64,000 nt of DNA from Phoronis australis (lineage: Eukaryota; Animalia; Phoronida): positions 982,955-1,046,954 of the forward strand of contig NMRA01000014.1 in assembly GCA_002633005.1 (NCBI GenBank), in the 5' to 3' direction. Positions 5,500-42,423 of this stretch are shown here, one piece after another. The position numbers and the translations under genes were made by a program. Below the pieces are notes generated by a model. That model saw only the letters and a list, made by a program, of their open reading frames with translations, searched no databases and was not told where the DNA came from. How positions within the stretch are numbered: the first letter of the stretch is position 1; each line of letters begins with the position of its first letter.

Positions 5500-5650
5500 C
5501 AAAAGATGCCACAGCCAAGGGCAACGACGAATGATGTTGTAGTGATAGCCGAGATTACCCCCACCTGGGAATTGAACCAATGAACCCCATAAAACTGATG
5601 AGCATGCTAACCATTCAGCTAATAGGCAATTGCCCATTAGCGAGTGGCTA
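5500..5650 (-). mobile_element. tRNA-derived SINE head
   Basis: Minus strand reads TAGCTGAATGG (A-box-like) ... GGTTCAATTCC (B-box-like); no valid cloverleaf. Confidence 0.5.
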
Positions 5651-6049
5651 ACAAAGGCTCATATGATTCACCGGAAGCGCATCTGATCTACAATGTTGAC
5701 GACTATAACAGACGTGCTCAAATAATGTTCACTAAATTGTCTCTAGACTTCAGTCATGGTATGTGTTAATTATAACTCATTGCCTATGTATGCATTCTTC
5801 ATTCGATGCTACTCACTGTACACTGAGATGAGTAACTTTTTTGGGATATGCTATTAAATATGCTAATTATGCTACGGGCTGTGGTGCCTGATGACCAGTT
5901 TAATTTGTGGAGACCACGGTCACGTTCGATTTTAAGAATCACGAGTATTCATGAGAAATTATGGATGTTTTACACAATACCTCCATATGAATGCCTCAAT
6001 TCCACCACTCAACCGCAGTCAGTGCGTTCAATATCATCGCATATGGCAG

Positions 6050-6110
6050 TATGGTCACGTCTCCGTCGGAAATGTAAACACGGAAGTTGATTCCGGTTGT
6101 GACCAGGCAG
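6050..6110. promoter_or_regulatory. Putative bidirectional promoter
   Basis: CpG-containing patch with opposed ETS-type motifs CGGAAGT (6081-6087) and TTCCGG (6091-6096) between two divergently oriented genes. Confidence 0.45.
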
Positions 6111-6686
6111 TCGAAACTCTATGAAATAAACCAAAAACCTGCCTTTTGTTGAAATTTTGAAAATTCCTGGAATTCAGTTTTAATTATAAAAAATAATGTA
6201 ATATGTGTTCTCCTTACAATGAAAAATATGCCTTTATGCAATATTTCCACAACGGTCATAATAGCTGTATTTTGCGACCACTTTCATAATACGGTCAATA
6301 CTCGGTAATCAAAGCTAGTGTTGGTTTTAGGAAGTGAATTACTGATATATTTTTGTCAGAGGCGAGTGCTAGTTTTGCGTTTCATGACCGTAATTGAGTT
6401 AAAAGTGAAGTTTGTTTTCTGAAGAAACGCAAGACCAAAGATATCGTTTGTAGACGATGGCCAGACGACTGTGACTTGTCTTAGTCAGTGATCACGTCAC
6501 ACAGTCCATTGATAGTGCTGTGAAAGAATGGATGGACCTTAAATTTGCCATTGTCTTTGTCTTTATCTGGCCGTGGCCCTCGGTCGGTGGACTACATTTG
6601 TCTGGCAGTGTTACTTAACATCTTTATCAGTTGGTAGCGTGGCAAATTAACCTGTATAGTGTAGAAACTCCCATTAAACTTTCATC

Positions 6687-7626
6687 ATGCTTGGCAGTGC
6701 TGTTTATATTGGGCTTTTGGCATCACTTTTGTGTCTCAGTGAAGCCAACCAATGTACTTCCTCTGCAAAACAGGTGGATAGTTTCTGTTCATTCTTCAAT
6801 AACCGAGCGCCCAAACCCAACCCACATCTAAAGAACTGCACCTGGTATGCGGACAATAGTTGCTGTCGTCAAGAAGAGATTGACTCAATATTCAGCAAAG
6901 TAAAACCTTTGCAAGGGGCCTCTAAACATTGCCAACGTTATATTAACTATCTCATGTGCTATGTGTGTGCCCCTACCCAAAACAAATTCTACAAAGGAGA
7001 AAAGTTGCATGTTTGCGAAGATTTCTGCAACAGTATGTATGATGCTTGTAAAACAGCAATATTAACGGGTTCGGTAATTAGTGATCTCTATGGAAACGGA
7101 CGGTCATTTTGTGAAAGCAGGAGCTTTGAAGTGGAAACTGGCAGTGGAAAAGAAAGTGAAAGACAATGTTTCACGAAGATCAATGGAGGTGCAACCAGTA
7201 AAGCATATGGATTAAAACTTCATCCTTTGCTAATTCTTGCAATTATTTTACTTAGCTGTGGTATACACATCGGTGGTCCAAATATGTCATCAATCCAAGC
7301 TGTTGACAATGAGTTGAAAGGTAGAAGGTGTGGGAACTATGATAAAAAGTGTAGACAGAATGTCTCGCCTCCTCAAATCTCACCCGGAATAGTATCTACC
7401 GTCTGGATATCAATACTCATTTATCTTTTTTGTCTTACTGGCGTGAGTAATGCATTGACTGGCTCTGATGTCTCGATATGGGCAAGACTGTTGTCGGATG
7501 ATTTGTTGCGATTATCTCATGACAGAATTCGGGACAGCTCGGCTCAGGAATTGTATGACAGCGCTAAGTACAGCAGACAGACTGTTGACGGACTGAAGAA
7601 AATTGGGAATATCAAATCAAAATTAG
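6687..7626 (+). CDS. Exon 1: signal peptide, folate receptor / riboflavin-binding-protein-like Cys-rich domain, hydrophobic GPI-like signal, spacer, second signal peptide, start of alpha2delta VWA_N
   Basis: Cys spacing CTWYADNSCC..HCQRYINYLMCYVCAP..VCEDFCNSMYDAC typical of the Folate_rec fold; DVSIWARLLSDDL resembles the alpha2delta mature N-terminus. Confidence 0.8.
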
Positions 7627-10600: not shown

Positions 10601-13600
10601 ACAAAATCCGCCAAGAACAAAGCCTGCAGTGGTTGCACAGCTGATAAGCATGAGAATTTCTATCCCAGCTGGTGTCAAAAAGGTAAAATAAATTAGTCAA
10701 CTTGATAATCTAATCAACCAATATGAATGGCTGGCAGTGGAATTTATTTCTCTGCTTTTAATTTTATGAACCGCTATGAATTGAATTTCTGTCCATTTAA
10801 TCGCAGTCAAGATCAATCTGAAGTCACTTTTGTGCTCTCATTACTCTGGAGAGCGCCAATGTGAAATGTTCCCTATATTGCAACAAAATGTCATATGACA
10901 TCTGAGCAGTAAGAGACAAGACTGGAGGCCAATTGTACATGACGGTAAATGGTCTAATTCAAATGTTCACTTCTTAGATGAACACATGCAGCTAGGTTTA
11001 TCGGATTTATGTCTGCTGTAATGCTTGTTTCATATTTTCAGAGGATTTTTTTGCTAGCAAGATAAAGTTGGCTATTAAACTGTCTGAAGCTGCAAAGAAA
11101 CTGCACGAGGAACACAAACAAAACAGAACATGGAGTGTGTCAGACATAAACCTCTTAAGTACAGCTCATTTCCTCAATGCAGAGTCAGCATGGACGTGGT
11201 CTCACAGTTATCCTCTTACCTTTGACAGGTAGGGAACTTTACATGCTCAAAGTGTTAAGTACTACACTTAAATAATTATCGTGTTACTTTGCATTGTATT
11301 GAACCTTAAATATCTCAAGATCTTTTATAGGGGAAAGCAGTCATTGGCTGCACTTGGTTGACTTTCGGCGGTACCTCCATGTCAGTCGGCTAGCACATCT
11401 GATTGGTCTGCATGCCGAAAGTCGTCATCCAGAACCAATCGGGTGTTGTTGCTAGTTTACCCATTTACTTTTACCATAATTAAAAGTCATTAGGTGAAAG
11501 AAAATAGCGTAATTGGTTCTTGTCTGCATGCAGACTCATGTTGAAGCATGTACCTTATGTTTAAAGAAAAAGAAGCGCTGTCTCGATCATTTGAACTAAC
11601 ATTCTTTTTCTCGTAATCAAAAGCTACAAAATGGCAAGTTTTTGTGAATTAATTGTGTAGTTGGTAACTCAGCAACAATCACTTAATAGATTAAGTTTAT
11701 TTTAAATTAATCAATATCAAAATGTCCAAATTGGGCTTAGTTCGGAGTAGTAATTTCATTTTTTATGTCTCTTGAACTCCTTACAGGGTCTGTGAAGTTT
11801 AGTAAGACAGTGTTTTCCTGTGAATAGCAACATGAAAGTCTTGCTTTCAGTCTCATCAGCTGGTGGTAGATTTGATGAATATAGACGGGATAAATGTTCA
11901 GGCACATGTTTAATATCTTCTCTTGATTTTGTAGACTATTCAATGCAGCTGTCAACGTAAACAAAAGTGTAGTCAAGTTGTGGGAATCTGCCAGCTATAC
12001 TGATCCTGCTGTTATTGATACATGTGAGTGGTCCAGTCAGTTGGATCACATATTCAAGGAGAACAGGGCTCAAGACCCAGCCATAAGGTCAGCATTACTT
12101 CTTAGGCTATCACTACCATGGCCTGTCTGTGTTTCTTGAGTGCAATGGCTAGTGCATACTAGCAGCGAATCTATTGATTTTTAAAGTTCATGTCTAGCCT
12201 TGCATTTACTTGAGATGTTTGTGATTTTATAAACAGTTGGCAAGAGAGTGTTTGCTCACTTTTGATGAGACTCTTCATTTAAGGGATGCTTTCCCTGCCT
12301 CACTGCATGTACCCATGTGGCTCCTGTCTCATGTCAATCAATAGTTCCGTTCACTTCGCTCCCTACTCTGTAAACAGAATGATGTGGATTATTATATTTT
12401 TGTACTGTGAGAGTCATTTTATTGGATTTTTGCACATTGTGACTAGGAAACGTTCACAATTATTGCCGTCCCCCCATACCCTCGAAAATGAACAAAGGTG
12501 ACAATTAATCTATGGTACATTGAATAAATTTATTTTTGGTGCCATACTGCTATAAACTGATCTCATATCTTGCTCCTTACTGAGATGAGAAGTGTGACTT
12601 CTTGTCTTACAAAGAACTGACACTTCATTATTCTTGGAGACTGTGAGCAGTGAATAAAATGACAAGACAACTGTTAGTGTCTGTCTCGAGCAATAACTTA
12701 CTGGTCTGTTCTTTGCACGCCCAGAAGTCACACGTAAGGAACAGTTTAAGACTATATTGTTAACGGCAAGTAGTCTAAATCAAACATTGTTTTTATGATG
12801 GAAGGCAGGGTGCCGATGCTTTAATATTTTTATGGGATTTTATGTGATAGTCACGTAAACTGTTTTGTACTCAGGATGTGCATTTGTACACTAGATCTGT
12901 AAATTAAACAGTGATTTCATTGGAATAATTTCGCAATCCACGAAACTGAAGTTGATGTGAAAAAGCAGTATATGAAGTATTTTACAAGCAGCATGGCTTC
13001 ACCCTATACCTCCAAAAGTGTACTATGTTTTGTTTAAACTTATGGTATTTTGAAAGTGGCATTAGCTGTGAAGGGTCTATTGTGTGTGTTCACCATTTGA
13101 GGTCCACTTGTTTCAGTATTTTTATTTCTGTCAGTAAATGTTTATCAATTGTAAGTTATCAGAAGCGAACTGTTTTCTTTCCTACAGTGTGTGACAAAGA
13201 AATGTTACTCATGCAGAGTGAATGTGGTTTTTATCTGGAGATGAGGCCTATGGATTGAAAAAATCATTGATTGTTCATCCAGGTTCAGAAATAACGACAA
13301 AATAGGAGCCGTTCAGTGTCAAACAAAAATCCATGTTTCTTTGATAAGTGAAAAACATATTCAAATAGAAAAAATAACATTCCGTCAAATGCGTAATATT
13401 TTTAGCCCATCTTATGATTACAACAGTGTTTGTCAGGAGTAGTAGTTTTGAATGTTATTGTGCTACATATCAAATCTAATCTTATTTTGATTAGAGTCAC
13501 ATGCAGCGCCCTCTTTCGTTGTATTGTTCATACTTTGATGTGACATCCTTTATAGACTTCAAGGGTATTGATATTTCTACTTGGTATCTCTTTGTACTGG

Positions 13601-16600
13601 CTGGAGTCACTGATTGGTTGCATTCATTTCCAGGCTATCTAATTATCACTGCATGGGGCTTTAATAGTATTTAAGATTATACAGATAAGCTATTAAATGG
13701 ACAATTTTCTATAATTCTCTAAGCACTTAAAAGTTGAATGAAGAAGTTTTCACTTACTGTTATGTTTCAAAGGTAATCGATTCTTTTTGTCCCATTATTC
13801 TTCAACTCCTGATTTCTCCACTAGATGGCAGTACTTTGGCAGCAGTACTGGTCTTATTCGCTCCTACCCTGCCAGAGATTGGCCAAGAAACCATATTGGT
13901 TTCTATGACGACTACGATCCACGTCTAAGGCCTTGGTACATCACCGCTTCTTCAAGGCCCAAGAATATTGTCATCATATTAGATGCTAGTTCGTCCATGG
14001 CTAAAAACAACAGGTGAATATTGTCAGTTTACATAATAATAATGCAAACTGTAGTTAACGATAGTTACCTGCAATAGAGAAACAGTTCTACCATAGCATG
14101 TGTATGTATAAATTAATAATCAAATAGTGTGTTATCAGCTGTTAAATGCATGCTTTGCATATTTACGCTACAAATTTTGTCAAATATTTTTCAGCAGGTT
14201 TGTTCATTTTTTTACAACTATCTAGAGGTCACCATGCTAGCAGCGTGTTTGGTCAATAGTTTGGTCTAAATGTCAATGTTTCAACTACAGTGGTTGACTA
14301 CGGGCGTTTACTTCGTTCTAATCTGGTGGCAGCTGAAAACCATAGTGATCTATTGTCATCATATTAGATGCTAGGTCATCCATAGCTTCACAGCAGGTGA
14401 CCATCCGTAGTACACGCCTGCCACGCCTGTTTTGGATTGCTTCTTACTTAGCCATCATTGATATATTTTTATGTAGTCATTGTTAGCAGATCTAATCATA
14501 ATCAGACCAAGTTGACTACACGTTGTTTCTTCTGCTGGAACAGGCATGGGGAGGTTTAACAGCGAAAAAATCTGTCGTTTACTGAGAAGTGTCAGTCAGA
14601 GTTGATGATTCATGCATTCAAAGTGTCCGCAGGAGTGGACAAAGTGTCGGCATTATGTTAAGTGTTGCGGCTGAACTCTGAGAAACAATAATATAACTGT
14701 TTGCCTTCGTGTAACATTAGTTGTAAATATGAAGTACTGTTTGTTTTCCTGGTATTTTAGGGAACTGTAGTGCTGCAGTGGATGGATGTCAGCAGGTGCA
14801 CCTCACATGGGTGGTGACATTTGTATTCTCCACTTCAGAATCCCTTATTGTTTTATGTGGAACCTGCCCTGCCATCTTAAAAGAAGACTTTTAATTTTGG
14901 TCTCTTACCAATTGTGAAATTTGTCTCAAATCATTCTTAGCCCATTTGGAGGAGGCCTCAAAAGAAACCTATTACAAAATGGAGAATAGAAATCGAGTAT
15001 TTTTTAGTGAAAGCACAAGATCAAAACAGCGAAATGTCAGGTTACTTGTGAAGTGATTTTTCTTTTTTCACAAATTGCTGTCTGTTGTGATGCCAAACGC
15101 GGAGCAGTGACTTGTTGCATTCGTCATAACATTATCAACAGTCATTTGTATGCAGACATGCAACTCACTCAAGATCAAAAATATGTTTTGTTTTCATTTT
15201 TCGTGGCATCTTTCCAGGTTATGTACACCTCGTTAACTCAATCTTATAGTGACTCGGTGACTGAAGGGACTTTGAATTGTGAAAGTGCACATGCCAAGCG
15301 GCAGATTCGATTTGAGCAATGAACTAAATACATTTATTTAGCACATTAATTTGAGTGGCAGCTCTGTAACTTTTGACCTTGGATAAGTAGTAAACAACTT
15401 TCTACACGGTTGAGGATGGTTGTGCTAAAACTGAAATCTTTTTTCTTGTTATGCGGTATATATTTCATATTTGAAGTTCCCCGAGAACCTTAATAATGGG
15501 TTTATGGTCCTGGCTGAGATTTTATTGTACCCTGTGGGTTCTGAATGGTCAGTCCAGAAAGAATAGATTTCTGTTAGAGAAACCACGATGCCTTCTCATT
15601 TTCAGATTGAGTTTGATGTATTCTGTGCCACCTAGAATCATACAATTTGCAGTGCAGTCGTCAGCACATTTCAACATTTCATTGTTTTTGCTACATTTTA
15701 GGTTTCCCCTTGCCAAAAAATCCGTTGAGGTACTGCTTCAAACTTTAAGCAAACGTGATCATGTGAGCATCATTGTGTCGCGGTCAGCCTACTGGACTAC
15801 AACCGGTACATATGTCAACATAACTTCCACCATGCTGTCCTGTCAGACTGATGGCTTACTGAAGGTTACAGCTAGCAATAAGAGACTACTTCAAGCTAGT
15901 TTAGATGATGTCAAGCCAGAGGGCGCTACTGACCTCAAGTAAGATGGCCTGTTTGCTAGTTCACTGATGAGACATCTGTAGTTGCTTGAAGTGTTTGTGA
16001 CTGCTGTCTTTAATTAGAAGTTACCATTTGTAAGCACAGATTTGAACTCTCTAATGTAACTTTATGAAATATGATCATGTGAAATGCTATACACACTGAT
16101 GTAAGTGTCATTCATCACATTTCAATAATGGCCACAACACCACTGCCCCTACTGCGTTTGTCCATAAAACTGTGTCTGTAGGGCACATATCTAAATACTG
16201 CGTATCACTATTTTACATACATTACGGGACAATCTTGTCATTTTTAGACAAAATTAATTGCTCAAATTGCCTGTTTCTCATTTTTCGATATCTTAGAATG
16301 CCTGTGGTTTTTAAAACTGTCTGATGAGACGCTGCGGTCAGTACTTGAAAAATGACAAATGCAATATTGTTGGATTTCTTAATGAAAGTTTTACTGCAGA
16401 TTTATGAAGTATTGGTGAACTCATGTCGGGTTTTTTTAATTTAGGCATTCAAACTTGGATGGACCAACTTACCAGGCCTTGACACTCTTGGTGACTACAA
16501 CTCGAGTGCACACTCATGTTTCGTTACCCATTAAGTGTCTCATGTGTTGTCATCTTACATGCCAGTGTCATCTTCTTTTCTGGCAAAAGCCTATGCTGTT

Positions 16601-19600
16601 CGATTTTATGAGGCATGACAAGTAAAAATTAAAGTAAGAGTTTCGAATAGACAACTGATTTACTTGGTAGGAGGGGGAGGTAACAAAGAATAGAGCTTTG
16701 CATTCTGGGCTGGCAATATTAGGCAGTGAAAAGTGGTGAGAGGGGGTGTGGGGGAGGGGTGGAATTGGAAGTGACCGAGATGGACTTGGTGACCAGGGGA
16801 GATTACGTAAGCCCTCATTCAAAAATTAATCTTTTCAGGCGGCACAGGCTTCTGATAATCTTCTGTCATATTAGTTACTGTTTTCAAGTGGCCGCGTTTT
16901 GATACCGTCTTGCGAGGCCAAGGGTCTGGGTGTTTTATTTGAAATGCATCTTTTACATAATGCACTTTGGTTCTTCACACATGTTATTCATTTCTTTATG
17001 TGATGGATTTTAGTCATAATGGCAAATGAATGCTGTTTTGTAGAAATTCTATGGAAATGGCCTATGATATTCTCGCTAGTCCTGACGTTGTTGGTTGCCA
17101 TAACATCGTGTTCTTTGTGGGTGACCATGACGATGATGATGGAAGTTACGTTAGGTGTAGCAAGGGTAGGTCAGTCCGCCACAGGCTTAACATTCATTTG
17201 GTACAATGTAGGTCAGTCTGCAAATGGAGTAGCAGGGATAGGCCATTCTGTTGCAGCTGTAGCAGGGGCAGGTTGGTCAACCAACAGTCTGACCATTAGG
17301 TTGCAGGATTGAACATTTTGGTTGTTACTCAGTCTTGGCTAAGAATAGACCCTATTGAAACTGGTGATCATTTCTTTGTAACAACGTGGGTAGGAGCTCA
17401 AAATGATTCTTGCACCTTACTGTCACCAGCTGCATGACATTGATTACTGTTCAACAGGGAGTGACTGTTACGTCACAAAATCAGTTGGTGAACAATACTG
17501 TTGGTGTCAACAGTCATCCAATGTCATGTTCACCCCTTTGTATAATATGTGTGTCGTTTAGACGTTAATGTCAAATCTCCAGGAAATTTTAATTAAGATT
17601 TGATTATGTCTGTCTGCTCAACAATATGGGTTCACCCTCACTTAAAAATAAGTTATAAGTTATAAGTGATATCATGGTTGAGTTCAAAGTGAAACTATGA
17701 GTTCTGTGTCTGCTTTATTAACCTTATTTCAAAGTTGCATCACTCAGTGTTTCATGCCTACATCATGATTGTGGGTTGACACATTCTCATTCTACTGTGT
17801 TGCACTTGACTCCAGGTTACGCCAAGTATGATGCTAATAATAGAAGACAGTTCAGTCCTGGCAAAATGTGCAAGTACGAGTGGAGACATCTGGCGACTCA
17901 TATAGCAAACACACGGATAGAGAAAGGAGTTATGGTGAGTTTTGTTAAGTCCAAGCACAGATCCAGGAGTCTGGCCAGATGTACAGTGTACACTCAGGCA
18001 AAGGAGGTATTTTATGTTCCTCTGTCCCATCAATACAGCATTGGTGGTACAACTGAAGTCTGGACCCCTTTGGATCTGTGCCTGGACTTGCTTCTAACTT
18101 GGATGAATATTAAAACTGATGAATATTTCCATGATGCTATATGTTGCCTGCTGACAAGCACCTCTGTCAGCACTTATTATTTTTTACACCACACATTGCC
18201 ACAAAGATGTGTTTAGTGCTACACAACAGTCAGGCTTTTTAGACCAGTGTTGTGTAATGGACTTAATTAGACAATAGGTATTTATAATAAATAATTTAAG
18301 AGACATCAGTGTATGTCGTTTGACAGTTATTGTACAGTTATCTTTTATGATGTTTTAATTGATGGTTTATTTTCCAGGTCTCTGTTTTCCCACTGTTAAT
18401 AAAGCCACGAGGTGATCTCTCTCATGAACTTCTGTGTACAAACCATACCAGGGTTTTACAGGTACTGTTGTTAATAAAGCCACAGGGTGATCTCTCTCAT
18501 GAACTTCTGTGTACAAACCATACCAGGGTTTTACAGGTACTGTTATTGATTCTTCTGGAATAATGTCAAAATTTGAATAACTTCAAAATGCCATATCGGG
18601 AATCAGCTGAAACTTTCAAATTCTATGATTGCATTGATCTGATAATCTCTCCGTTGTTGAGAACTGTCATATAGTTCTGTGTAGACAGAGTCAACTTTGT
18701 TTTATTCTATGACAGATCGAAAAGGAGAGTGACATATACAAGCAGCTGAGGCCCTACTTTGATTACCTGGCTCAGACATCTGGCTACCGTCATGTGTCAG
18801 TAACAGATCCTTACCTAGACAATGGCGGGTTAGGACTGGTGTTTACCGTGTCTGTTCCCGTCTACAGCCAAGTGTCTCGCATGTATGTATAGCACATACT
18901 CCCTTTATCACATATTTCTGCATTTTGTGACTTGGTTTAGTCATTGGCCCCATTGTGACAACACAAAATTTACACAGTGCCATCCTCGCAGCAGTGACTT
19001 GCAGTTTGCTCTTAAAAATTCGACTGTCCCATGTTTGCTGCTGTCTATTGTGGCAAAACAGCGTTACAATGTTGTTATTGCACGGTATATGGTGCAGAGT
19101 TGTTGACTTATTAACACCCTCAGTAAACTGTTAGTTTTGTTTTGTTTTGTTTAACTCATCTGTAATTTTCAAGTTACATGATTTTGTTATGACTTTTGCA
19201 GCTTATTAGGAGTTGTTGGTATCGATGTCTCATTATCAAGCGTGGAAAGTATACTAGCCAATGAAGTGTGGGGCAGTGCTTATGCATTCATGATTGACAC
19301 TCAAGGCCACACCGTCATACATCCCGGCATTGTATCGTCATCAAAGGTTAGTTATATTCAGTTTTGAGATGGAACTTTCTACTGAGATGAAGTGCGGCGA
19401 ACTGAAGCTAATCTGTATGACTATTAAAAAATTTCTGAGAGGCTGAAGTTTTCACTGTAAAACAGTTTTGCTCTTGCTGTAGTTTTCAATCATTAATTGT
19501 GACTTCCATTTGTAAGTCATTGTACAGTTTGCTGTCTGGGGTGGTAATAAAACTGTTACCACGGGCCACAAAACAAGGCAGAAGCTGAACCCTTGCCACT

Positions 19601-22600
19601 CTCCACAAAACATGCACTGTGAAAACTCTTGCCATGCACAAAGTGTGCCCTTACCCCTTTAGCTGAACTACAACCACTCATAGACACACTTACCAAAAGT
19701 GGTATTTAGATGTAACTGCAGTGCTTGATGTTTTGTGGAGATTATTAAAGGTTATCTCCCATGGTAAGTGTTTTGTGGAGATTACTAAAGGTTATCTCCT
19801 ATGGTAAGGGTTTCTCTTCTTGGTAAGTGTTTTGTCGAGAGTGCTAAGGTTTCTTCTACCATGTTAAGGGTTTCATTTCTGTGTTTTGCAGCCCATGGTA
19901 TGGGTTCAGTTACCATCCCTGGTGGCCATGATAACACTGATGATGTTAATTTCATCAGACTGCTTATACACTGGCATAAGTAGAATCAACTTCCTCAGAT
20001 ACTAAAATGTTGTGACTTTGTATATTTTGGACTACTCTCTACAGTCTTTTATCAACAACTGATGACAGGACGTCCAGGTTTCCGGCCGTTCTGTCCTCTG
20101 GAAGTAGTATGACGTCGTAGACAGGCTCAGTGAAGCTGCAATCCTTGATTTCGATTCGTGGTAGGCTTGTTAGTCTTGATATATATGGTTTCTTAACCTT
20201 CTTCATATACAGTGGCACTTATCATGTTATTTTAAAAATGCCATCTGTGTTCAGGTGGATTTGAGCTGGTGCATATTGATATTTCCCCCATTCCATGTTG
20301 TGTTCTGTTGATTTCTAGCTCATTGCTGACCCTGTCTATGTGGATATTGGGCTGTTGGAGCCAGACTCACAGGAGTTCACCAGTGTAATTAATGACATGG
20401 TCAACCAGCGAACAGGAAGTAAAAGAATCAACAACACGAGACGTGCTGTGTACACAGATGGCGCTGTTGTGTGGCATAGTGTACCTTATACACACTATGT
20501 GTATGCAGGCATCCGCAGTGAGTACTGCTGGCAAACAACTGAATGTGTTGAGGAAAAAATGTAGTTCATGTTTCATTATTCAGTTTTGATGTACACTGTC
20601 AATATAACCGTGTTATGAGTATTCACAACTAGCCTTTTTATGCTTGCAGCAGTTTTTTGAGAGATGATTTTTTTGTGTTTTGAAATTAGATTTTAAGAAT
20701 AGTGATGTAATAATCAGGCTCATCATAACAGGTTTACTGGCATTTTATTTACCAGTAAATAATAATTCCGTTTTGTTGGCTTGTTGTTGCAGACTCGGAC
20801 TACTCCATATGTCTGTCGATGGCCGACAGTGATGAAGATTACAGGCATCCTGTGGCCTCAGTTAGAAGCAATGGGCCTCCCTCACGTGTTATGATTAGTA
20901 ATGACCTCAAGGCTTATAGTGGTAGGCAAATAGTGTGCTTATTTTACATTATGGTAACATTTCATGTTGTAAAACTATTCCAAACTTTAGTGGAAAGGTA
21001 CTGTGTTAAACGAATACAAATGACAGCGACACCTGGAGATGGGGATTGAGAATTTAGAATTGAGGTTGACTTTGAAAACACCGTTGTTGCCATCAGCTAC
21101 ACAATGGCTAGACAATGGGTCATCAAGGACAAAACAGCATGTCATATAAAGTTAGGCATGACGTGTGATGCATTTAAGTCACATGAGCAGTTGAAATAAA
21201 AGAGGCATTTTCATTTGTTCGTAATGCAAAAAGTTGTAAAATAGTACATAAAAATTTGAAATTGACTGCGTAGCATTTGTGTATTATGTCACATACATTA
21301 ACTGATGACTGAGATCAGTGCGAATTTGCTATATGAATTTGTCGGGTAAATAGTCTTTTTCATTTGATTCTTTAAAGAGCTTTAAGTTCTGATTTTCCTT
21401 CGAAAACGCATCATTTTGTACATAAAAAGCGTTTATATGCCTATTCAACACACATTCATGCTTCACGTCCTTAATATGGAAACGAGGCACTTTGTCACAA
21501 CTATGTTCTCTTTGGATAATTTCTGTCGAAGAAAATGGTACCTAACTTTTCATGAGGACATCAGTTCCAAGAGGTCAATCAGAAAGTTCAAAAAGTCATC
21601 AGTTTCTGTCCACAATATAGTCGTTGCTCATGGATTAATTGCTCTGCTTCACATAAAAAGGAACTTACTAGATCAGTGTTCATGATGATCCTCACAGTTC
21701 TTGTAAAATCAGTTGACAAAATACAAGGTGTCATAAAGATGGACTGAGTTTTTAATGCAACACTTTTGATGCTTCGATTTTGAAGTCTCATTCCCATCTG
21801 AAAAATCCTGAAATCACTTGAAACTGTCCTTAGCATGCCCAAAACTGTCCCTCGAGTAGTCAAAAATTCCCCATTTGAACTCACACTCAATCTTGGCATC
21901 AGAAGGTCTGTAAAAGTTCACTCTTTTTGTGTTGCCATCTCAGTAAAGAGAACAGTTAATGAATTTAGTTTGTGGCTTTAGTGTAGGGATTATTACGTGG
22001 TCTTGAGTAAAGGCTGTCATTCATGGGAGTCCTTGATTCCCTGCCTCACTACAGAAATCTTGGTCCTCTTTTTCATTTGGGTTTTGGGATGAATATCAAG
22101 GCTATCGTTTGAGTTTTTTCTTTGCATCTTCTGTACATCTCATTCTGTAGTCACTCTTACCCTAGGTTAGTCAAACCATTCATTGTACATTTTTGTAATT
22201 TTAGCTCCATTGTGGAATATCTCCTCGATCGGCTTAGCCCCGAGGTCGTTCTGTAACCCTGAGAAGTACATAAACGAAGGGTTGCCTTCAGTTGAAGACA
22301 TGGAAAAGTATGTCAATTCTGAAGATTTTAACGAATGTCCTACAGGCCTGTACCATCGCTCAGTCAGGTGAGTAGTGCAGAGCATGGTTAAAAGTGTTCA
22401 TCACAGTTGTGGCAGGCACTGGCATTGCAAGAATCATTTGCCCAACTATTTTTCCATTATCAACCTGTGCTTTATCAAGGATATTGTTCATAAAGTGCTG
22501 TAAATAATTTGCATTTTTTCAATGTGGCACTAAAATTAATTGTTTCCTAAAACATTTCGGATATATTCTGATCAGAATTTGTTTGATGCATCCTATAATT

Positions 22601-25600
22601 TTGCCATTACATCTTACAGAGCTGATGTAAAACTTACGTCAGCACTTGAACAGCTGTGGGTAAGCAGGCCAGTGGAATTACAACAGGCTATTCCTTGGAC
22701 TTATATTGGTCTTGAGAGTGGAGTGACAAGATCATACCCAGCTGCCCCAACTAGTGTGACCTTTGACCCTACAACGTAAGTATCTCCATTGGTCTCGGAG
22801 ATTTGTGTTACAAGATCCAACTGTCTCAAGTAGTGCACCTCTTTAGCATCCAAAGTATGTGTCTCCATTTGTCTAGAAAGTTGAGTGACAAGGTCATACT
22901 CAGATGCCTCAGCTGGTGTGACCTTTGACCTTACAAAGTAAGTATTTCTGCTACCAGGGTGATGAGATCATACTCAGCTGGTATGACCTTTGGCCCTACA
23001 AAGTAATTATTTCCATTGGTCTAAAGAGTGGGTGATGAGGTCATACTCTGTTGCGTCAGCTGGTATGACCTTTGATCCTACAAAGTAAGCATCCCCATTA
23101 GTTTAGAAAGTGGAGTGCCCTAAGTAATGGGACCTTTGTCCCTTCAAAGTAAATATCTTGAATACCATAAAATTGAACCTCATTCTGTGATGTTTGTTAC
23201 TTTGCAGACATTTCGTAATCTCCTATTATTGTTCAATTTATTTCCTTACAGTTTCCATAATGTCTCAGTGGGTTAGTTCCACTTGGCTTTTAAATTGAAA
23301 ATCCAATTTATCCAATAGTGAGCATAAAACCAAATGCAACAAAATGTGGTGGTGTAAAGGTACATTTCACGAAATTGGTGAATTGCCCTTTAAGCTTATT
23401 TGTTGATTATGTCAAACCTGCTACTGCAGTAAATGGTATTTGCAGTGTCTAGTGTTACATATTGTATGGTCTGTTACATCTGTGTGTAGTACTGGCAGTG
23501 TATTGTATGGTCTGTTACAGCTGTCTACGGTACCGGCACACTGTCATCAACAAGGGGTAACTGTCATTGTCTAGTGTTTAGTATGTATGGTCTGTTACAG
23601 CCGTCCATGGTACCGGCATGCTGTCGTCAATAAGGGTAAACTGGCAGTGTCTAGTGTCTATCGTGACGACGGTGGAGTCGGTAAAGTGGTCACACTGTCT
23701 CGAACTATACACAGGGGAGGGCACCCACCACCTGTCCAATGTAACAGTAAGTAATAGGGAATTGAAGGGGGTGTTGCCCATTTCGGATAAAAGTAATTGC
23801 AGCCAAAATTGATCTTTTAATCATTTTCATGGCTACTTACATTCTTTTGATGTCCTGGCACATAATTCTCAAAACATTGTCTTGTGGTAGCTTAATGTAG
23901 AAATTACTTGATTTTCATGCATCCATGTAATGGAAACTGTACGCAACGAAACTTCCGAAAAAGTATGCTTACAATGTGCTGTAGAATATTCCTCAGTAAC
24001 CTCTGCATTGGTTTGAAGCTGAAAGCAGTTAATCAGCAGGATGCATTGTGGGTAAGGCTGTAGCAGGACTACCTCCAATGTCTTGGAACATTGTCTCACT
24101 AGCGCTACCTAGGGAACATCAAACTGCCCTTGCTGTATTGTGGAGAAAGTGTTAATAATTGTTATTTGTGAAATTTGTTTGCTTCCATTAATTTTGTAGG
24201 TCCATCAGCTAATGGGTGCAGTTGTCAGTTGAACTCTGACTGTGAGTCTGGCATTTGTCTGTCATTGAAGTGTGCTAGCCGTGTAGTGAGTGGTGTCCTA
24301 GCCATGGACATACATTACGATCACTGGGACAACATGGTGAGACGACTCAGTGACGGCTTAGGCATCACATGTGGCCAGAGGTGAGCAGTGGGGGTGGAAC
24401 TGCTTCAGAACAGTCGTATTTAGGCCATTTGATCTATGCAACAACGTTTTAGTTTTGTCGTCTTCAAAATGAAATAATTTGAAAGACGGGGTTAGTATTC
24501 ATTACATAGTTGACCAATCAAATAAGTTAAGTCAAAAGGTATGAATAGCATCTGCTGTTAGCACAGTCTCTCAAAGATGATTGAACATTGACCAAGTCTA
24601 CCTAGTGTGAGTGCATCTCCAAATAAAAGTGTGTATCCAGCGAACTGACATTTTTAACAGAAGGTCACACTGTGAGCGCACCATGAGGGATGTGGTATGG
24701 AATGAACACTTTTTCACCCTACTCCGTACTTTTGTGTTAAGGCTGAAGTCTTGCTGTGAAAGTTTACATGACATACTATGAGATGTATTTCCCTGGACTT
24801 TGAATAAACTATCCTATTTATTTAGAAAATTGATTTAGAGGCTTAAATTTAAAGGAATAAAATGAAAGAAAAAACAACAAACTTGATTCAGGTATTCAAA
24901 CACACTCAAAATACAACTAGTAAGATTGTTTTTTTAAACAAATCAGCAAAAATTGCAAGAGTGTTGGTTCGTGGGTAATGTGAAACATACTAGGCACATG
25001 TGCCCGCTGTATATTATGCAGAATACTTCCTGTAAGAAACTTTTTTGATGAAAAATGCATTGTTTTAGATAGAGGTGCATGCACAGGCCTAAATACACGC
25101 ATCTATGGCTATTCTTATGCTTGACTATCACTGTTCTAACATGCTGAATCTTTCAATTTATGTTGAAGGTAGTCGTACCCAGCAGCCAATTTGAGATTAA
25201 CTAATTTTAGTCAATTTCTGTAAGTTATTTTTGATTTAAAATGAAGGTGTGTATAACTTCCTCAGTGAGAACACTGGTTTCCAAGAAGGTTCTCATTATT
25301 GTAGGTATCCTTTGATACGTAAATCATAATAATTACTGAAAATTTTCAGGTGTTACATTGTGGACACATCTGGCAACTTTGTCTTGAATGCTGACTTCCT
25401 GAAGGTATCTGACAATCATCATCACCTTTATCAGGAGAAGTCCCTGGCCACTGAACATGGATATATATTCAATGACCTTATTCAGTGGGGAGTCTTTGAG
25501 TTAAGGGATAGGATTGATTACCAGGCAAAGTGCCAGCTGGATGAGGAAACATGTGTTGAGGTAAAGGAGACCAAGATTGTATGGTTTGGTTAGTGACAGG

Positions 25601-28600
25601 TGAATCAAGGGGTACATTTGATTGGGTAGATTTTGGCCAAGGTGAACCGATGCATATGAATGTGGGCCAGTGGCCACTTTTGGTTTGGGTAAATATGTAC
25701 TAAAAGGCATGGTGGAGCACTAAACATGGGTGAAGGCTCCGCCACTGGTGGCCAGTTATGTTCCTAATAGCTCTCATTTAGTATCAACTCCAGACGACAG
25801 TGATTTCCAAAAATGCAGATCTAGTCCACTTTAAAGGAATTTCCGCAGCCTTGTGTTTAACAATCTGATTCACACATCAATTATTTACTGAGCTTGGCTA
25901 GTGTTTTTATCGTCAGGTAAAGCAGTAGTTGCTCTACTTCATAAAATAAACTAGGATCAGTGTTCATGATATCGAATGTTGATGGCGCTTGCAGTTCTTA
26001 TACTAACGTGTTATTGGTAACTATAAAAATTGCTGTAAAATGGGCCTACTTTCTAATGAATTATGGGCCAAGAACACTCTGGTGGTAGCCTAAGTGGGAT
26101 AAGGGGCTGAAGAACACCAGATTTTATGGGTTTAGTTGGTGATGGTCCAAGAGACACTGGTGGTCAGATAAACAGGACAAAGGCCACCAGACTGAAGCAG
26201 ACCAAAATCCTTTTGTTTTATAAATAGTGATAACTAGGTCAGGCCGAACTGGTGGTTGAGTTACTATATGCCAATGGGCACTGGTGGTTAGGTAAATATG
26301 GTCTCAGCGGCACTGGTTGTTAGGTAAAGGGTATTCAGGTGGTCAGGTAAATGGGACAAGAGGTGGTGAAATGGAGCAGGCACTCAGGTTGATGGCTTTA
26401 GTTGGTAATGAGCCAATGTGTACTACATGAATGAATCAGGTCAGAGTTGATAGGTTCAGTTAGTGATTGGCTTAGGGATTTTCTTTCAACCACATTGAAA
26501 GACTGTGTTGAGACTTATTTGAACATGGGTTGAGGCTGTCGTAAATATGTTGACTTGTTTTAATGTACTAGCTGTTCGTTGGCACAGCAAATTTTTTTCT
26601 CCACTTGTGTTATATAGTTAATGAAAACACCATGCCCATTTACTCATGCATTTTTGGTTGATCTTAGTAAGTTTAAAAGATTTTTTATATGAGTTCAGGA
26701 TCAATCATACTTAATTACCAGTTATATGTCTTATCTCTGAGCAATGATAAATGGTCAAAAGATGATTACCAGCGGGAACAGCTAGATGGCATTTCCCAAC
26801 TCGCTACTGTGAATTTTTGGGGTGACTTAATATAGCCCCTTCACTTTTAATTTGTGGCTTCTTTTGTTTGAGGATAAGGGAATGGAGATAAGTGCTAGTG
26901 ATTGTCACTACTTGTTCTGCCTGTTTGTGGCAACCTTTTTCCTGCCTACTTTAAAATTAACCCATCTTTGAAAATTAAATTTTTTCATTGTTTAAATCAT
27001 AAAATTTGGTTACTAACAACAGCTGTTTCTTAATTTGTCGATGTATCCCAGCCTTTATTGTGTAACCTGCCTGAGCAACACAATATGGCAACTTGTCTTG
27101 TGCGTTTAGAAGCTCCTGAAGAATGCTGGGAAATTTAAATGGGAGCACCAGTCATGTAATGAATGATACAAGGGATACCCACCAAAATGGAGGGCTCTAG
27201 CCTTATGTGTTAGTAGAGAAAGTTGGATAATGTGTGTGAATGCAATAAAATACTTAACTTCAGGCACCGACATCGTCAAATCAGCGTGGTCCATTACCCT
27301 CTTATCCTTCGTCGGTAGCTTGTGTGAAGACAGTCCTCTACTACAAAGGCAACTGGACCAGGGCTGACCAACTTGGAGTAATATCAGGTATGGGAGAGAG
27401 TGTATGACAAGGGACCACACTATTGAGAGGATATGGTGTGTGTCATGAGTCACATAGTGGGTGACATCATCAGTGTCATCAGGGGTCACATTACTAAGGA
27501 TAATGCATGGCATGGAATACAGTGTAGTGTTACTGGGCCTCATGGTATACAGTGTAGTGTTACTGGGTCTCATGGAATACAGTGTAGAGTTACTGGGCCT
27601 CATGGAATACAGTGTAGAGTTACTGGGCCTCATGGAATACAGTGTAGTGTTACTGGGCCTCATGGAATACAGTGTAGTGTTACTGGGCCTCATGGAATAC
27701 AGTGTAGAGTTACTGGGCCTCATGGAATACAGTGTAGTGTTACTGGGCCTCATGGAATTGGTGGTAATATAATTCATTACTTCACACCACTTGTGCTTTG
27801 CTCTGTTTTATTCATTCCTTTGTATCTGTCCATTGGAGTAACTTAATAATAACACAGAGTGTAGTTCTTAGTGGGGTTATAGTGTGTGTCTATCACCATT
27901 AACCACTGTAGACCTGGCTGCCGCTTTACTCTCGTAAAGTTGGTCTCCTGATATTCCTTACCGTTATAGGATTCTCTTTCCTTTGCTAAAAAGAACTTCA
28001 AAACTACCATTTATAGATTGATTAGTCCATGCCCAACTCTAAAATTGAAAATGGTGTATAGATACATTGTGAATTCCATTTGGCGTATGCACGAATTGCC
28101 TGTGAGTTGATTGCGTAACCAGAAACAATCCTATGAAAGGAAGGAACCCATTTTACGAGACTGAGTAACACTCCCCCTTGGATTTGTCATTTTTGGCCAG
28201 CTGCACTGAGCAAAATGGAACTGTAAGATGATTAATCCTGTCCTGGTCAAAATGCTAGGATAGCAAATATAGGAATGAATGGCAAAACTGGAGGTGACTG
28301 TGGATGGGTTGTGACACGACTTCCTGAGTGAGTCAGTTATTTCTATGGTTGGCAAATAGTATGCTTTATAGTGGTTCTGACATGGACAAACACTGACACT
28401 AATTGTGAATAGCTTGTGGGCTTCTCTCTGTAAAACTTGGCTTCAGAACAATTCTGTTCACTGATTTTATTCCTTTTGTTTTGTTTTTGAAATGTGTCAC
28501 ACAAGCTGCATTAGTCAACTCACTACAAAGTTGGGCTGCTGTGGTTCAGACATAAGAGTGCAGTTCAAACCACAGTTTCAGGTAAAATTGAATGTTTAAA

Positions 28601-31567
28601 ACTTTCCAATGACGACTCACCATCTTTTTCACTTTGATTGATGATGCCGAGGTGTCGTGCGTAGGGCTAATTCAAAGCATCTGCCATACACAGTTCTCGC
28701 CTGAACTGGAATGTGGTAGGTTTCACAACCTAGAGTCCACCAGCAAATACCCAGCTCGCTTAAACCGGGCACATGCTTCACTAAAGCAGCGTCGCGCACG
28801 ACACCTGGCATCTGCAATCAAAATGAACATTATGGCATGTCATCATGGAAACGTTCTCTGTAACAATCTTCAATTTTAGCTAAGAGTAAAGTTGAAACTG
28901 CATTAGTTTACTTGTGATTTTGTTATAAATCCAGGATCCTTAAGTGGCGACCCCTGTGGTGATGGACAGTACTACTTCACTGCAGTTCCTGACACCAATC
29001 TCTTCCTGCTGATGATTGACAAGTACAAGCAAACAGATGACTATCTTCCCTTCAACTGCAGAATTGCTAATCAGTGAGTATTGGACCAGGTATACTACAG
29101 TCAAGCATCCAATCTTGAATTTTTATCAAATGAGCTGGCAACTTAGTCACAATGCAATGCGTATTAGTGCCATTTTCAAGTTCACAATTTTAGGGTTGGA
29201 CAATCCCTTTCATGTCTGAAGGCCTAATACGAATAGAATCATGACACTGTAAGGAATAAGATCGATTATATGAGAGTAAAAGGCCCAATCAATTTTCATT
29301 TTCTGATGGTGAAATACAGCTGCTTTAGGACGTCAGAATGTCAGTGAGTTATGGAACATCATATTTCAGAAATGACTGAAATTATTTGAATGAAACATTT
29401 GGATACTACTGCTTTATACACTGGTTTCCAAACACCAGTTGGAATTTTATTTAAAATATTCCACATTTTGCATGGGTTAAAAATGGGACTTTTATGAGTT
29501 TTATGAAATAACTAAAACTGGTTGCATCAAATAAAAGACAAAATAATTTTGAAATATATGTACAGCGTTTTTGGTTTCATCAGGAAATGATATTTGTTCA
29601 TGATATTGATATCGCTGTTCTTGTTAAAGCGTGCCATTATATTTTGTTAAATTTTACTAAAACGACATTGGTCAGTTGACCTAATTAATGGGAGATTTTT
29701 ATCAAAAGTCAAAAATAAAATGCTACTGGCATTCAACCTGTGGAAATATGTACTAGTTGATGAGGTCCTACATAATCTTAAATTTTCCACTATTGCTCCC
29801 TCATCATTTGTGGCATGATCATCCCTAGGCTTGTGTCTGTGCTGAATGCAATCCACATGGTGGCACATGACATTGCTCTGCATTGCTCTTTGTTTTGTCC
29901 TTTACTTTTAAAGTCGTTTTGAAAATGTTTTACACCTTGTGGATGGCACAAGTATGTATGTTACTCTGGTTATTTTTAGAAATGATTTCTCTTTACAAGT
30001 TCAAGGTATAGGATTGTTGTTGTTGCTATGAGTTTAGAAATTGTAGTGTAGGCATGGCAACTGTAGTTAAGGAGTTCTTTGTTATGGTAGTGCTCTTTTG
30101 TTAAAGGACATTGCTAGTCTAACCTATGGCTGTTACGTTCGCATGATCTTTCAATGAATGACTATGTAATGTGTTTTGTCACTTCACTCAAGCCTTTTTA
30201 TTATTTTAGGTGTTACTATAGCCAGTTTGCATTTTGTATAATCACTACACTTATCGGTTAGCCACATCTCTTGTCAGTGACCGCATGCTGTAGTCTGTTG
30301 TCAGGCTGACAGCTGGTTTGTGCGCATGTCTGTCAGTGACTCCATGACGTAGTCTGATGTCAGGCTGACAGCTAGTCTGCGCATGTTTCTGTCAGTGACT
30401 GCATACCATAGTATGTTAGGCTGACAGCTTGTCTGCGCATGTCTTTGTCAGTCACTGCATGCAGTAGTCTGTCGTCAGGCTGACAGCTAGTCTTCACCAG
30501 CATCATGTTGTTGGCAGTAGTGTGTGTGAATTGTACACTTAGCATGGTGCAGGGCTTGGAATTTTCCTCTTTTAACAGGATAAATCTCGTTTTTTGTTTT
30601 CATTCCTTCTTATTTGATTTCCAATTTCCTCTTTTTTCGTCTCTTTTTTATGATTTTATCATGCAAAAATGATTAATTTTAATTTTTCATCACAAAAATA
30701 TTTCTATCACACATGCCTATTTGTGGAATGACACATCACCTGGAAATTTTTCTTCTTTTTGTCATTGAACATTCCAAACCCTGATGGTGCAACTGGTGAA
30801 ATATTTTCATATTACTTGGAAGATATTCAGTAAAATAGATTGCAAGCACTTGGGCAATTGTAAGTGTGAATTTCATTAGCCCAAAGATTTAATTTTAACT
30901 CCAACCATCAGCAGCAAATGTATCATTGATAATTGCTTAAGGTCTTGTTATATATTTTTGTTATTATGTACAGGTTTGACCAGGATTGTCACAAGATATT
31001 CATTGATTCAGTAGATGGATTAGACTTTGGATTTAAAGGGCTTAATTTGTATGTCATTTCTCATGATATAATATCAACTGTACTGCACAATTGACCTATC
31101 GTAAGCTCCGCCCCCTTGCGAAAAGTCGACAAACAACCAACAAGTTTTAACCAGCAACTAACGTGTTGTAACCTAAGTTGTGTCAAGAATGCTGCATTCT
31201 GATTAGTCAGTTAAGCCGTCACTAAAATCCTGGTGATAGGTCAATTAATGACTGGACCATGTCTGTTTACAGTGTTCACCGACCGGGTTCATTCCCTCTA
31301 CTAGATGATCCATGTCAAGCCTCAACGAACACACGCAGATACTCAGCAGCCATGATGACTTGCCCTATTCTTAAACTCAATAAACCAGAAGGACTATGTA
31401 ATGCAGCATTAGCCAATCACATGCTTCTGAAAGATGTGCTGCAGAATTGCTTGCTATCGTTAGTGTGGCTATGTGTTTTGTACTCCAACCGGAATTTCAT
31501 TATAAATATTCTTGTGACGACACCAGATGTCACCGCACTCCAACCATTGAACACTGCTATTTTATGA
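6687..31567 (+). CDS. Folate-receptor-domain / alpha2delta-CACHD1-like (VWA_N, VWA, Cache) protein, ~1361 aa, 20 exons
   Basis: Exons 6687-7626, 11042-11228, 11935-12087, 13825-14013, 15702-15938, 17044-17165, 17816-17934, 18378-18461, 18716-18882, 19202-19346, 20319-20517, 20793-20921, 22205-22367, 22620-22775, 23601-23746, 24200-24380, 25350-25560, 27264-27387, 28935-29073, 31273-31567; all GT-AG and phase-consistent, 4086 nt. Motifs WQYFGSSTG, YDPRLRPWY, ILDASSS (MIDAS), PYLDNGGLGLVFTVSVPV, LLGVVGIDV, YIGLESGVTRSYP, FDPTTRPWY, VPDTNLFLL. Confidence 0.85.
18393..18545 (+). repeat. 75-bp tandem duplication of exon 8 3' part including its donor
   Basis: Two near-identical copies ending TTTTACAG|GTACTG at 18461 and 18536. 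Confidence 0.95.
19725..19870. repeat. Short degenerate ~40-bp tandem repeat
   Basis: GTTTTGTGGAGATTA.TAAAGGTTATCTCC.ATGGTAAG units. Confidence 0.7.
22700..23160 (+). repeat. Degenerate tandem copies of exon 14 end plus donor
   Basis: TGACCTTTGACCCTACAA(C/A)GTAAGTAT recurs about five times. Confidence 0.85.
23425..23660 (+). repeat. Degenerate tandem copies of acceptor plus exon 15 start
   Basis: GTATGGTCTGTTACA(G) occurs three times, followed by GTAC(C/T)GGCA variants. Confidence 0.85.
27511..27758. repeat. 30-bp minisatellite, 8 units plus a partial unit
   Basis: CATGGAATACAGTGTAG(T/A)GTTACTGGGCCT, near-perfect, intronic. Confidence 0.97.
30270..30492. repeat. ~58-bp tandem repeat, about 4 units
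   Basis: TGTCAGTGAC..CAT...GTAGTCTG..GTCAGGCTGACAGCT units. Confidence 0.85.
30550..30783. mobile_element. hAT-type MITE (CAGGG...CCCTG), copy 1
   Basis: Termini CAGGGCTTGGAAT / ATTCCAAACCCTG, flanked by ATGGTG on both sides; homologous copy at 58465-58713. Confidence 0.8.
31089..31246. mobile_element. MITE
   Basis: Perfect 12-bp TIR AATTGACCTATC / GATAGGTCAATT. Confidence 0.6.
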
Positions 31568-37600: not shown

Positions 37601-37609
37601 CCTTTCTCT

Positions 37610-42200: not shown

Positions 42201-42423
42201 AACTACTCGAGTTACAGTTCAATAAATACCGGGGAATGTTGAAGGCATTACATCACCAGTGTCTAGCAAATTCAAACTGGCTGCAGACAACTAGTCAGGA
42301 AGCATTTGTCAAGCATGAAAACATGATGGCTAACTCCCTGGTCGCTGAGTTCCAAGATGTCTTCGACTACAGTATAGGTAGACTGGAAGGACCTGTCAAA
42401 ATGAATGTACAGGAGGGAGCTGC

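Follow-up and report, generated by a model that had tools for sequence, protein, structure and literature searches.

In Phoronis australis, a single stop-free exon joins a cysteine-rich domain (CRD) of the folate-receptor type to the beginning of an alpha2delta-like protein, through two hydrophobic stretches, H1 and H2, that are separated by a basic loop. It appears that this exon may begin a precursor which would be cut by signal peptidase at H2 and by GPI transamidase at H1 to give two surface proteins; on the sequence comparisons presented here, the probability of this reading is about 0.48. That the chain is split into two proteins in one manner or another is, from the same comparisons, quite likely. 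A sequence-only reading of this DNA had proposed a cellular polyprotein, and the comparative data favour that view.

Gene structure and transcription of the locus

The window, as the whole stretch of 64,000 nucleotides analysed here is termed, contains on its forward strand a single frame that starts with an ATG at 6687, continues up to the GT donor that follows 7626, and spans all of the elements named in the sequence-only reading. These are, in order, a signal peptide, a Folate_rec domain, H1, the basic loop, H2, and the beginning of a VWA/double-Cache protein. Frame, RNA, and homology identify 6687..7626 as coding exon 1 (aa 1-313) with the whole junction inside it, and the gapless RNA bears out the claim that one unbroken exon encodes the junction of the two halves. 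The N-terminal signal peptide (aa 1-20, 6687..6746) was read by eye and corresponds to a model helix at residues 2-20. A transcribed 5' leader (6281..6686), recognised from the read depth starting in bin 6281-6507 and from the list of ATG codons, carries four short upstream ATG frames at 6384, 6457, 6528, and 6532. All of these features, and those of the same gene described below, are on the forward strand.

A gene model built by homology, with three orthologues as guides, has 20 exons, all of them GT-AG, and encodes 1361 aa with a single terminal stop at 31567, in agreement with the 19 further exons that had been claimed downstream of exon 1. The model is possibly short of one or two small exons, as there are gaps of about 20 and about 14 aa relative to the orthologues; a search for small missing exons gave no convincing candidate. 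Transcription was followed in three stranded RNA runs from one study, 18-19% of each being read. Sense-strand RNA is present in every 227-base bin of 6281-7642 in all three runs, and across the coding part of exon 1 none of them shows a joint or an indel. This continuous cover speaks against separate transcripts with polyadenylation before about 7280, and no transcript end is visible in the RNA at the ATTAAA at 7211. Splicing from 7626 to 11042 is supported by 4, 7, and 13 reads in the three runs, and from 11228 to 11935 by 2, 6, and 6 reads, so that RNA defines exon 2 (11042..11228) at both joints and exon 3 (11935..12087) at its acceptor. An open reading frame at 10303-10566 was rejected as exon 2, since the RNA skips it. 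Exons 4-20 rest on homology alone; one RNA contig run bridges only 7262-7483, and the 151-base reads are too short to join both halves on one molecule.

Nineteen RNA variants of exon 1 were listed, these being the best supported, and the mapped stretch holds 41 more. Among those listed, all 5 that fall in the CRD are synonymous; in the H1-loop-H2 region 6 of 8 are non-synonymous, with no stop codon created, and in the part encoding the second half 3 of 6 change a residue.

Several other features lie within and around the gene. Two tandem duplications, of 75 bases at 18394-18544 and of 80 bases at 23504-23657, contain second copies of the exon 8 donor and the exon 15 acceptor, respectively, and possibly give alternative splice sites. 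A 30-base tandem array occupies 27511-27758, within an intron, and at the dispersed repeats of 5600-6050 and 10180-10880 numerous reads from both strands match in part. Pieces of gag and integrase frames from retrotransposons lie at 33757-43027, followed by exons for a DHHC palmitoyltransferase on the reverse strand (45665-47620) and for a Myb-domain protein on the forward strand (55429-56988), which presumably resembles ZZZ3.

The first unit is a pocket-type cysteine-rich domain

The CRD comprises aa 33-162 (6783..7172), with 12 Cys and 1 Trp, as delimited by Pfam and fold comparison. Pfam Folate_rec matches aa 37-128 (E 5.9e-18, 65.7 bits vs a cut-off of 29.8) over profile positions 7-114 of 172 only; the N-terminal domain is Folate_rec-like, as had been claimed. 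Its identity to four orthologues is 60-66%, as compared with 8-23% for the loop and 35-38% for the second half. In a structure model of exon 1, aa 31-150 have a pLDDT of 85-97, helices are present at H1 (180-195) and H2 (234-250), and the loop is disordered. Foldseek gave E values of 6e-6 to 6e-4 against Juno, RBP, and FOLR, and the VIA Z scores were 11.6 for RBP (rmsd 3.3, 132 aligned), 11.5 for Juno, 10.4 for the N-terminal domain of NPC1, and 8.1 for HHIP-N. According to the available text of PMC8660895, the pocket-type CRDs, including RBP, Juno, FOLR1/2, NPC1, and HHIP-N, form one fold class. The window CRD shares their fold but differs from these known pocket-type domains in having only 13-25% identity to them, a length of 130 aa, and 12 Cys.

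Folate receptors have a domain of about 200 aa with 16 Cys and several Trp in the ligand segment. With 130 aa, 12 Cys, and 1 Trp, the domain of the window departs from this pattern; the Trp count is 0-2 in 36/36 CRD cores of the family, and non-aromatic residues align with the Trp-bearing segment of RBP. On the structure model, the first unit is a pocket-type cysteine-rich domain without the Trp-rich segment of folate receptors and a putative ligand binder. The earlier suggestion of a vitamin binder is not upheld by the single Trp, the 130-aa length, or the fold, which resembles NPC1 and HHIP-N to about the same degree as FOLR/Juno/RBP. A tree of the CRDs is weakly resolved and provides no dating; stand-alone forms fall among fused ones. 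When the ESM Atlas was searched with the stand-alone homologue P0010, Folate_rec clusters (mostly Mollusca) and ciliate clusters were found; a Mid1-labelled cluster at 0.76 is a lead only.

The stop-free junction is conserved

With the window, 20 proteins have the fused order without a stop, i.e. 19 others, and together they contain 22 junctions. No stop lies between the halves in any of these 22, and the search of other invertebrates that had been suggested for the same architecture with two hydrophobic segments was thereby answered by 19 other proteins. Full fusions were found in Tubulanus, Lingula, Owenia, Lineus, Helobdella, Sycon, and Salpingoeca and in the records P0109, P0069, and P0071, that of Sycon being present in both genome and transcriptome records. 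The range of the fusion therefore extends over a choanoflagellate (Salpingoeca), a sponge (Sycon), a leech, two nemerteans, Owenia, and the brachiopod Lingula.

Among 26 relatives of 105-335 aa, four extend past H1, loop, and H2 as far as the alpha2delta-like helix, a further 21 end at most 22 residues after H1 (gastropods, a rotifer, a crinoid, and others), and one extends for 61 residues and then stops. The ten longer relatives include three full-length fusions, five exon-type fusions, and two with unrelated C-terminal parts. In all nine exon-type homologues, the match ends at the same K-L-[G/S] point, which is the end of exon 1 in the window, and this suggests from the sequences that they share the intron after it. 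A HMMER search with the second half alone showed that, among the 150 matches listed, six besides Lingula and Tubulanus carry the CRD (Helobdella, Sycon, Salpingoeca, P0109, P0069, and P0071); a word-index search with the alpha2delta-like half was of low sensitivity and returned Lineus only, whereas the HMMER search reached further. Two CRDs precede the alpha2delta-like part in P0069 and P0071, each followed by a hydrophobic junction. Both junctions of P0069 have the full series of H1, short loop, and H2, and a single hydrophobic stretch is all that is present at the second one of P0071. The two proteins are possible three-product precursors.

A 43-codon loop would be free of stops by chance with a probability of about 0.055; therefore, the window alone would not prove selection. 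Selection is shown by the conservation of the order of parts in the 19 other proteins, fused forms being findable because their frames are open. It is scarcely credible that the junction is an artefact or a recent accident, that is, a merged gene model or a stop codon lost in the Phoronis genome. Merges do occur, as in the records from Glandiceps (P0035) and Diadema (P0036), where the CRD is joined to a fatty-acid transport protein and an unrelated repeat-rich protein, respectively; these are probably merged gene models, and both were excluded from all counts. The Phoronis junction, however, lies within one RNA-covered exon and is found again from Salpingoeca to lophotrochozoans.

Both halves also exist as stand-alone forms, the CRD with a stop in gastropods, rotifers, and echinoderms. 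The fusion is therefore dispensable in several lineages, because the halves occur alone. Three stand-alone proteins (P0001, P0002, and P0009) have tails of 17-61 residues past H1 and resemble fusions that are degenerating beyond a newly acquired stop; P0009 was excluded from the stand-alone set in the comparison of H1 below. The simplest history that may be drawn from these sequences is a fusion before the split of choanoflagellates and animals, with later loss of the CRD.

H1 resembles a GPI signal

In the window, H1 comprises aa 181-193 (7227..7265), with a Pro in front, and the candidate GPI omega residues A169-A173 (7191..7205) are marked by omega-like triplets 10 and 12 residues before it. 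Over the 22 junctions, H1 has a length of 13.5 aa and a Kyte-Doolittle 19-mer value of 1.87. In 21 stand-alone relatives, the stretch at the C-terminus is its equal (13.5 aa, 1.70), and this match upholds the internal GPI-like signal described in the sequence-only reading. The type-I helices of paralogues (33, from 81 long matches) are longer and more hydrophobic (17.3 aa, 2.71) and differ from H1 with p 1.6e-5, a value which, like all p values for these junctions, overstates the difference, since the rows share ancestry. H1, H2, omega, and cleavage sites were judged by ad hoc rules. An omega-like triplet stands in front of H1 in 20/22, of the stand-alone tails in 15/21, of the type-I helices in 19/33, and of H2 in 7/18; the rule is loose and does not separate stand-alone tails from type-I helices (p 0.39). 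By this loose rule, the pattern of omega site, spacer, and short hydrophobic stretch occurs in 20 of the 22 junctions. The GPI-type signal would thus be internal in 22 junctions and C-terminal in 21 stand-alone relatives, and H1 is, by sequence, the predicted GPI-type signal of the first unit.

The loop and H2, a predicted internal signal peptide

The basic loop (aa 194-238, 7266..7400) is stop-free, unconserved, of low pLDDT, and predicted to be cytosolic; it contains M200 (7284) and two N-x-S sequons, N199 and N225. In 18 junctions, the loop cannot be aligned and measures 16-168 aa, with about 5-16 aa in P0069 and Sycon, and no conserved motif was found across the junctions. Its K+R exceeds D+E in 18/18 (174 vs 74). 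Both cytosolic loops and the n-regions of signal peptides are basic. Processing of the furin type was rejected because the loop is predicted to be cytosolic and has no conserved motif.

H2 is encoded at 7401..7454 (aa 239-256), with a hydrophobic core at aa 239-250 and a predicted signal-peptidase site S-N-A256/L. A site with Ala at -1 and a small residue at -3 follows H2 in 15/18 junctions vs 5/18 for H1 (Fisher p 0.002), and three H2 without the strict Ala(-1) have near-rule sites. The second signal peptide with cleavage after A256, as first read from the window, fits this pattern. Ten of the 15 Ala(-1) sites are 8-10 residues before a conserved helix anchor, a Trp; in the unfused proteins of Gordionus and Pharyngomonas, the N-terminal signal peptide ends 9 residues before the same Trp, as in the window. 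The H2 of Owenia aligns with the signal-peptide region of alpha2delta-1 (PDB 8if3). H2 is therefore best described, from its sequence, as the predicted signal peptide of the second unit itself.

The two ectodomains might alternatively stay uncut on one chain, as a tandem receptor held by a hairpin of two helices. Three of the 18 junctions fail the strict Ala(-1) rule, and cleavage itself is a prediction; yet the three misses are near the rule, conservation extends to the signal-peptidase-type site but not to the loop, the hydrophobic stretch of H2 is only about 12 aa long, and halves that occur alone end or start exactly at signals of the H1 or H2 type. An uncut receptor is consequently improbable.

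Separate starts are a further way in which the alpha2delta-like protein could be made: an internal promoter or a start codon in the loop, such as M200, would produce it with H2 as an ordinary signal peptide. A Met occurs within about 30 residues of H2 in 13/18 junctions (chance 48%, p 0.03), M200 has an A at -3, and RNA depth climbs along exon 1 in the runs X2 and X3 (2.5 to 8.3 and 3.9 to 8.1). Depth in the third run, X4, however, is near flat (10.2 to 14.8) and without a step. The loop of Lingula lacks a Met altogether, and the 30 residues next to H2 contain none in the window, Tubulanus, Owenia, and P0003; initiation at M200, as once suggested, is not conserved and may be a side route. Separate starts would also leave unexplained why the first unit lacks a stop codon, and that unit would still be made as a long chain. 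There is little to recommend this explanation as the general one.

The second unit belongs to a third alpha2delta-like family

The N-terminal helices of the VWA/double-Cache (alpha2delta-like) part were placed by homology at 7455..7626. VWA_N lies in exon 3 by Pfam, and the remaining parts were assigned from the homology model: exon 4 (13825..14013) has YxxxxRxWY (aa 457), the first of the motifs for amino-acid binding, and the MIDAS DxSxS (aa 480), exons 5-13 (15702..22367) contain the VWA and the remainder of the first dCache with Y710 at 18812 and D741 at 19224, and exons 14-16 (22620..24380) have the second dCache motif F-x4-R-x-WY (aa 993), Y1017, and D1082. Exons 17-19 (25350..29073) are followed by exon 20 (31273..31567), which has the last hydrophobic stretch (aa 1324-1334) and the stop. 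Single downstream exons of the window give weak VWA_N and dCache_1 matches below the cut-off; VWA_N, VWA, and two dCache modules are recognised by Pfam in the orthologues, with which the window exons align throughout at 35-38%. DxSxS and both dCache amino-acid motifs are present in 5/5 of the full-length proteins examined, the first motif position being F in two of the five.

The available text of PMC8915833 describes VWA_N, VWA with DxSxS, and two dCache modules in alpha2delta, CACHD1, and double-AA_motif proteins, and the amino-acid motif as kept in the first dCache of alpha2delta, the second of CACHD1, and both of an ancestral double-AA_motif group. The second unit is like these proteins in its domains but differs in forming a separate clade, in having the motif in both dCaches, in lacking the long CACHD1 tail, and in the added N-terminal module. 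The orthologue of Owenia matches alpha2delta-1 (E 2e-35) and CACHD1 (E 7e-30), and database names of family members are alpha2delta-like or uncharacterised. In a 31-sequence tree, the family (SH-aLRT 99.4), which includes unfused proteins from Pharyngomonas and Namystynia, is apart from the alpha2delta (100) and CACHD1-like (100) clades, labels that rest on three database names, that of alpha2delta on one name and the YDVRRRPWY motif. In a 95-sequence tree, 10/10 full-length fusions fall in one clade (0.987) together with three unfused proteins; both trees are without vertebrate sequences. The bilaterian members divide into a fused group (98), which includes the window and an unfused protein of Gordionus, and an unfused paralogue (100), which is represented by Asterias, Branchiostoma, and Tegillarca. 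Records of the unfused paralogue are P0064, P0072, P0078, and P0108, and that of Asterias has both amino-acid motifs.

The description of this part as alpha2delta/CACHD1-like thus holds for its VWA_N, VWA, and dCache content, but not for membership of either clade, since it is outside both in the 31- and 95-sequence trees. By sequence, the second unit is a third family, distinct from the alpha2delta and CACHD1 clades. The type-I helix and long tail of CACHD1 are absent from it, and in Lingula a long helix and tail occur in another protein, one that bears the name CACHD1. The orthologues end 2-5 residues past a short hydrophobic stretch in a GPI-signal-like manner, as compared with 28 in the window, where the end of exon 20 is atypical in its 27-28 residue tail and in the absence of an omega-like triplet.

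Proposed processing of the precursor

A possible processing scheme can be described as follows. The first signal peptide would open translocation and the CRD would go into the lumen, H1 would stop transfer and leave the basic loop in the cytosol, and H2 would resume translocation. Signal peptidase would then probably cut after A256, giving an alpha2delta-like protein with an N-terminus like that of its unfused relatives. If so, it is somewhat favoured that GPI transamidase would also cut near A169-A173 and attach the CRD to a lipid anchor, the H1-loop-H2 remnant being thrown away. The large alpha2delta-like product is predicted to be GPI-anchored as well; GPI anchoring of alpha2delta-1 itself is disputed in the available text of PMC3112168. 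The repeat of H1, loop, and H2 between the CRDs of P0069 is as expected of such a modular precursor. The single stretch at the second junction of P0071 speaks against the hairpin steps, and H1 is so weak that it might not stop transfer.

If H1 and H2 both passed the translocon, the whole chain would be lumenal and GPI transamidase alone would cut it, at an internal omega site. According to the available texts, a signal peptide inside a chain can go through without being cut and without stopping transfer (PMC2114505), and a signal peptide can supply the hydrophobic part that an internal GPI signal needs (PMC2288913); the single stretch of P0071 would agree with such a route. The excess of basic residues in the loop and the retention of the Ala(-1) site, however, indicate a cytosolic loop and signal peptidase, and make an all-lumenal chain very improbable.

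In vertebrate astrotactins, according to the available text of 10.1101/493858, signal peptidase cuts after the second helix, and its authors regard internal cuts by this enzyme as uncommon in cellular proteins. By analogy, signal peptidase could act after H2 in the present family while H1 is an ordinary anchor, so that the CRD would stay on the H1-loop-H2 hairpin without GPI. The same topology and enzyme have been established for astrotactin (10.1101/493858, available text), the H2 site is conserved, and natural GPI signals are C-terminal in the available text of PMC2288913, while up to 168 polar residues follow H1 here. On the other hand, type-I helices exceed H1 in both length and hydrophobicity, the small residues about 10 before H1 are kept, and the loop, which is devoid of any conserved motif, can be as short as about 5-16 aa, as seen in P0069 and Sycon. 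A lasting hairpin anchor is thus an unlikely outcome, though one to be taken seriously.

The precursor with both cuts would bring the two proteins 1:1 to one membrane. Its likeliest role, inferred from motifs alone, may be joint small-molecule sensing, with a lipid- or vitamin-like ligand in the pocket domain and amino acids in the two Cache pockets; the intact MIDAS could possibly also allow the products to assist a channel or receptor as accessory subunits.

Comparison with known systems and significance

Astrotactin 1/2, in the available text on them, resemble the present proteins in having a signal peptide, a lumenal domain, two hydrophobic stretches, a cytosolic loop, and a large lumenal C-terminal part, and the sequence pattern of two hydrophobic stretches around a basic loop occurs in 18/18 junctions here. 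Their domains are unrelated to those of the window, they are vertebrate-specific, their first helix is a lasting anchor, and their pieces are disulfide-linked; in the present family, by contrast, both units are also free-standing genes, H1 is GPI-signal-like, and the topology is predicted. The envelope polyproteins of flavi- and bunyaviruses place an anchor before an internal signal peptide and so encode several surface proteins per frame. Unlike these, the present gene is cellular and intron-containing, and its predicted anchors are of the GPI type rather than transmembrane.

We know of internal GPI signals in engineered chimeras only. In a DAF-hGH chimera, an internal GPI signal was processed at its normal site (Caras 1991, PMC2288913, available text); such chimeras differ in being artificial and, as described there, in having no cytosolic loop and second signal peptide after the signal. 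Amphioxus FrLRR combines a folate-receptor domain with a second ectodomain and a predicted C-terminal GPI site, but it is possibly unique to one species, and the available text of PMC10199209 does not mention an internal hydrophobic junction. In the literature searched, which comprised few subscription journals and no supplements, neither a fusion of a CRD with an alpha2delta-like protein nor a natural case of an internal GPI signal with a signal peptide after it was described; the word 'folate' is absent from the main text of PMC8915833 in its available part.

Viruses often use internal cuts by signal peptidase, which are rare in cells, and the present junction, preserved all the way from choanoflagellates to lophotrochozoans, is a natural, testable case. 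It would amount to a portable linker of anchor signal, loop, and export signal, a kind of unit that GPI predictors limited to C-termini would miss. If the internal GPI step is true, the processing would be new in kind, whereas the signal-peptidase part alone resembles that of astrotactin and viruses. Moran and Zakon (PMC4202318, available text) found no alpha2delta homologue in sponges or non-animals; the third alpha2delta-like family is present in a sponge and a choanoflagellate. As it keeps both amino-acid pockets, it bears on what the Cache domains of channel subunits originally sensed.
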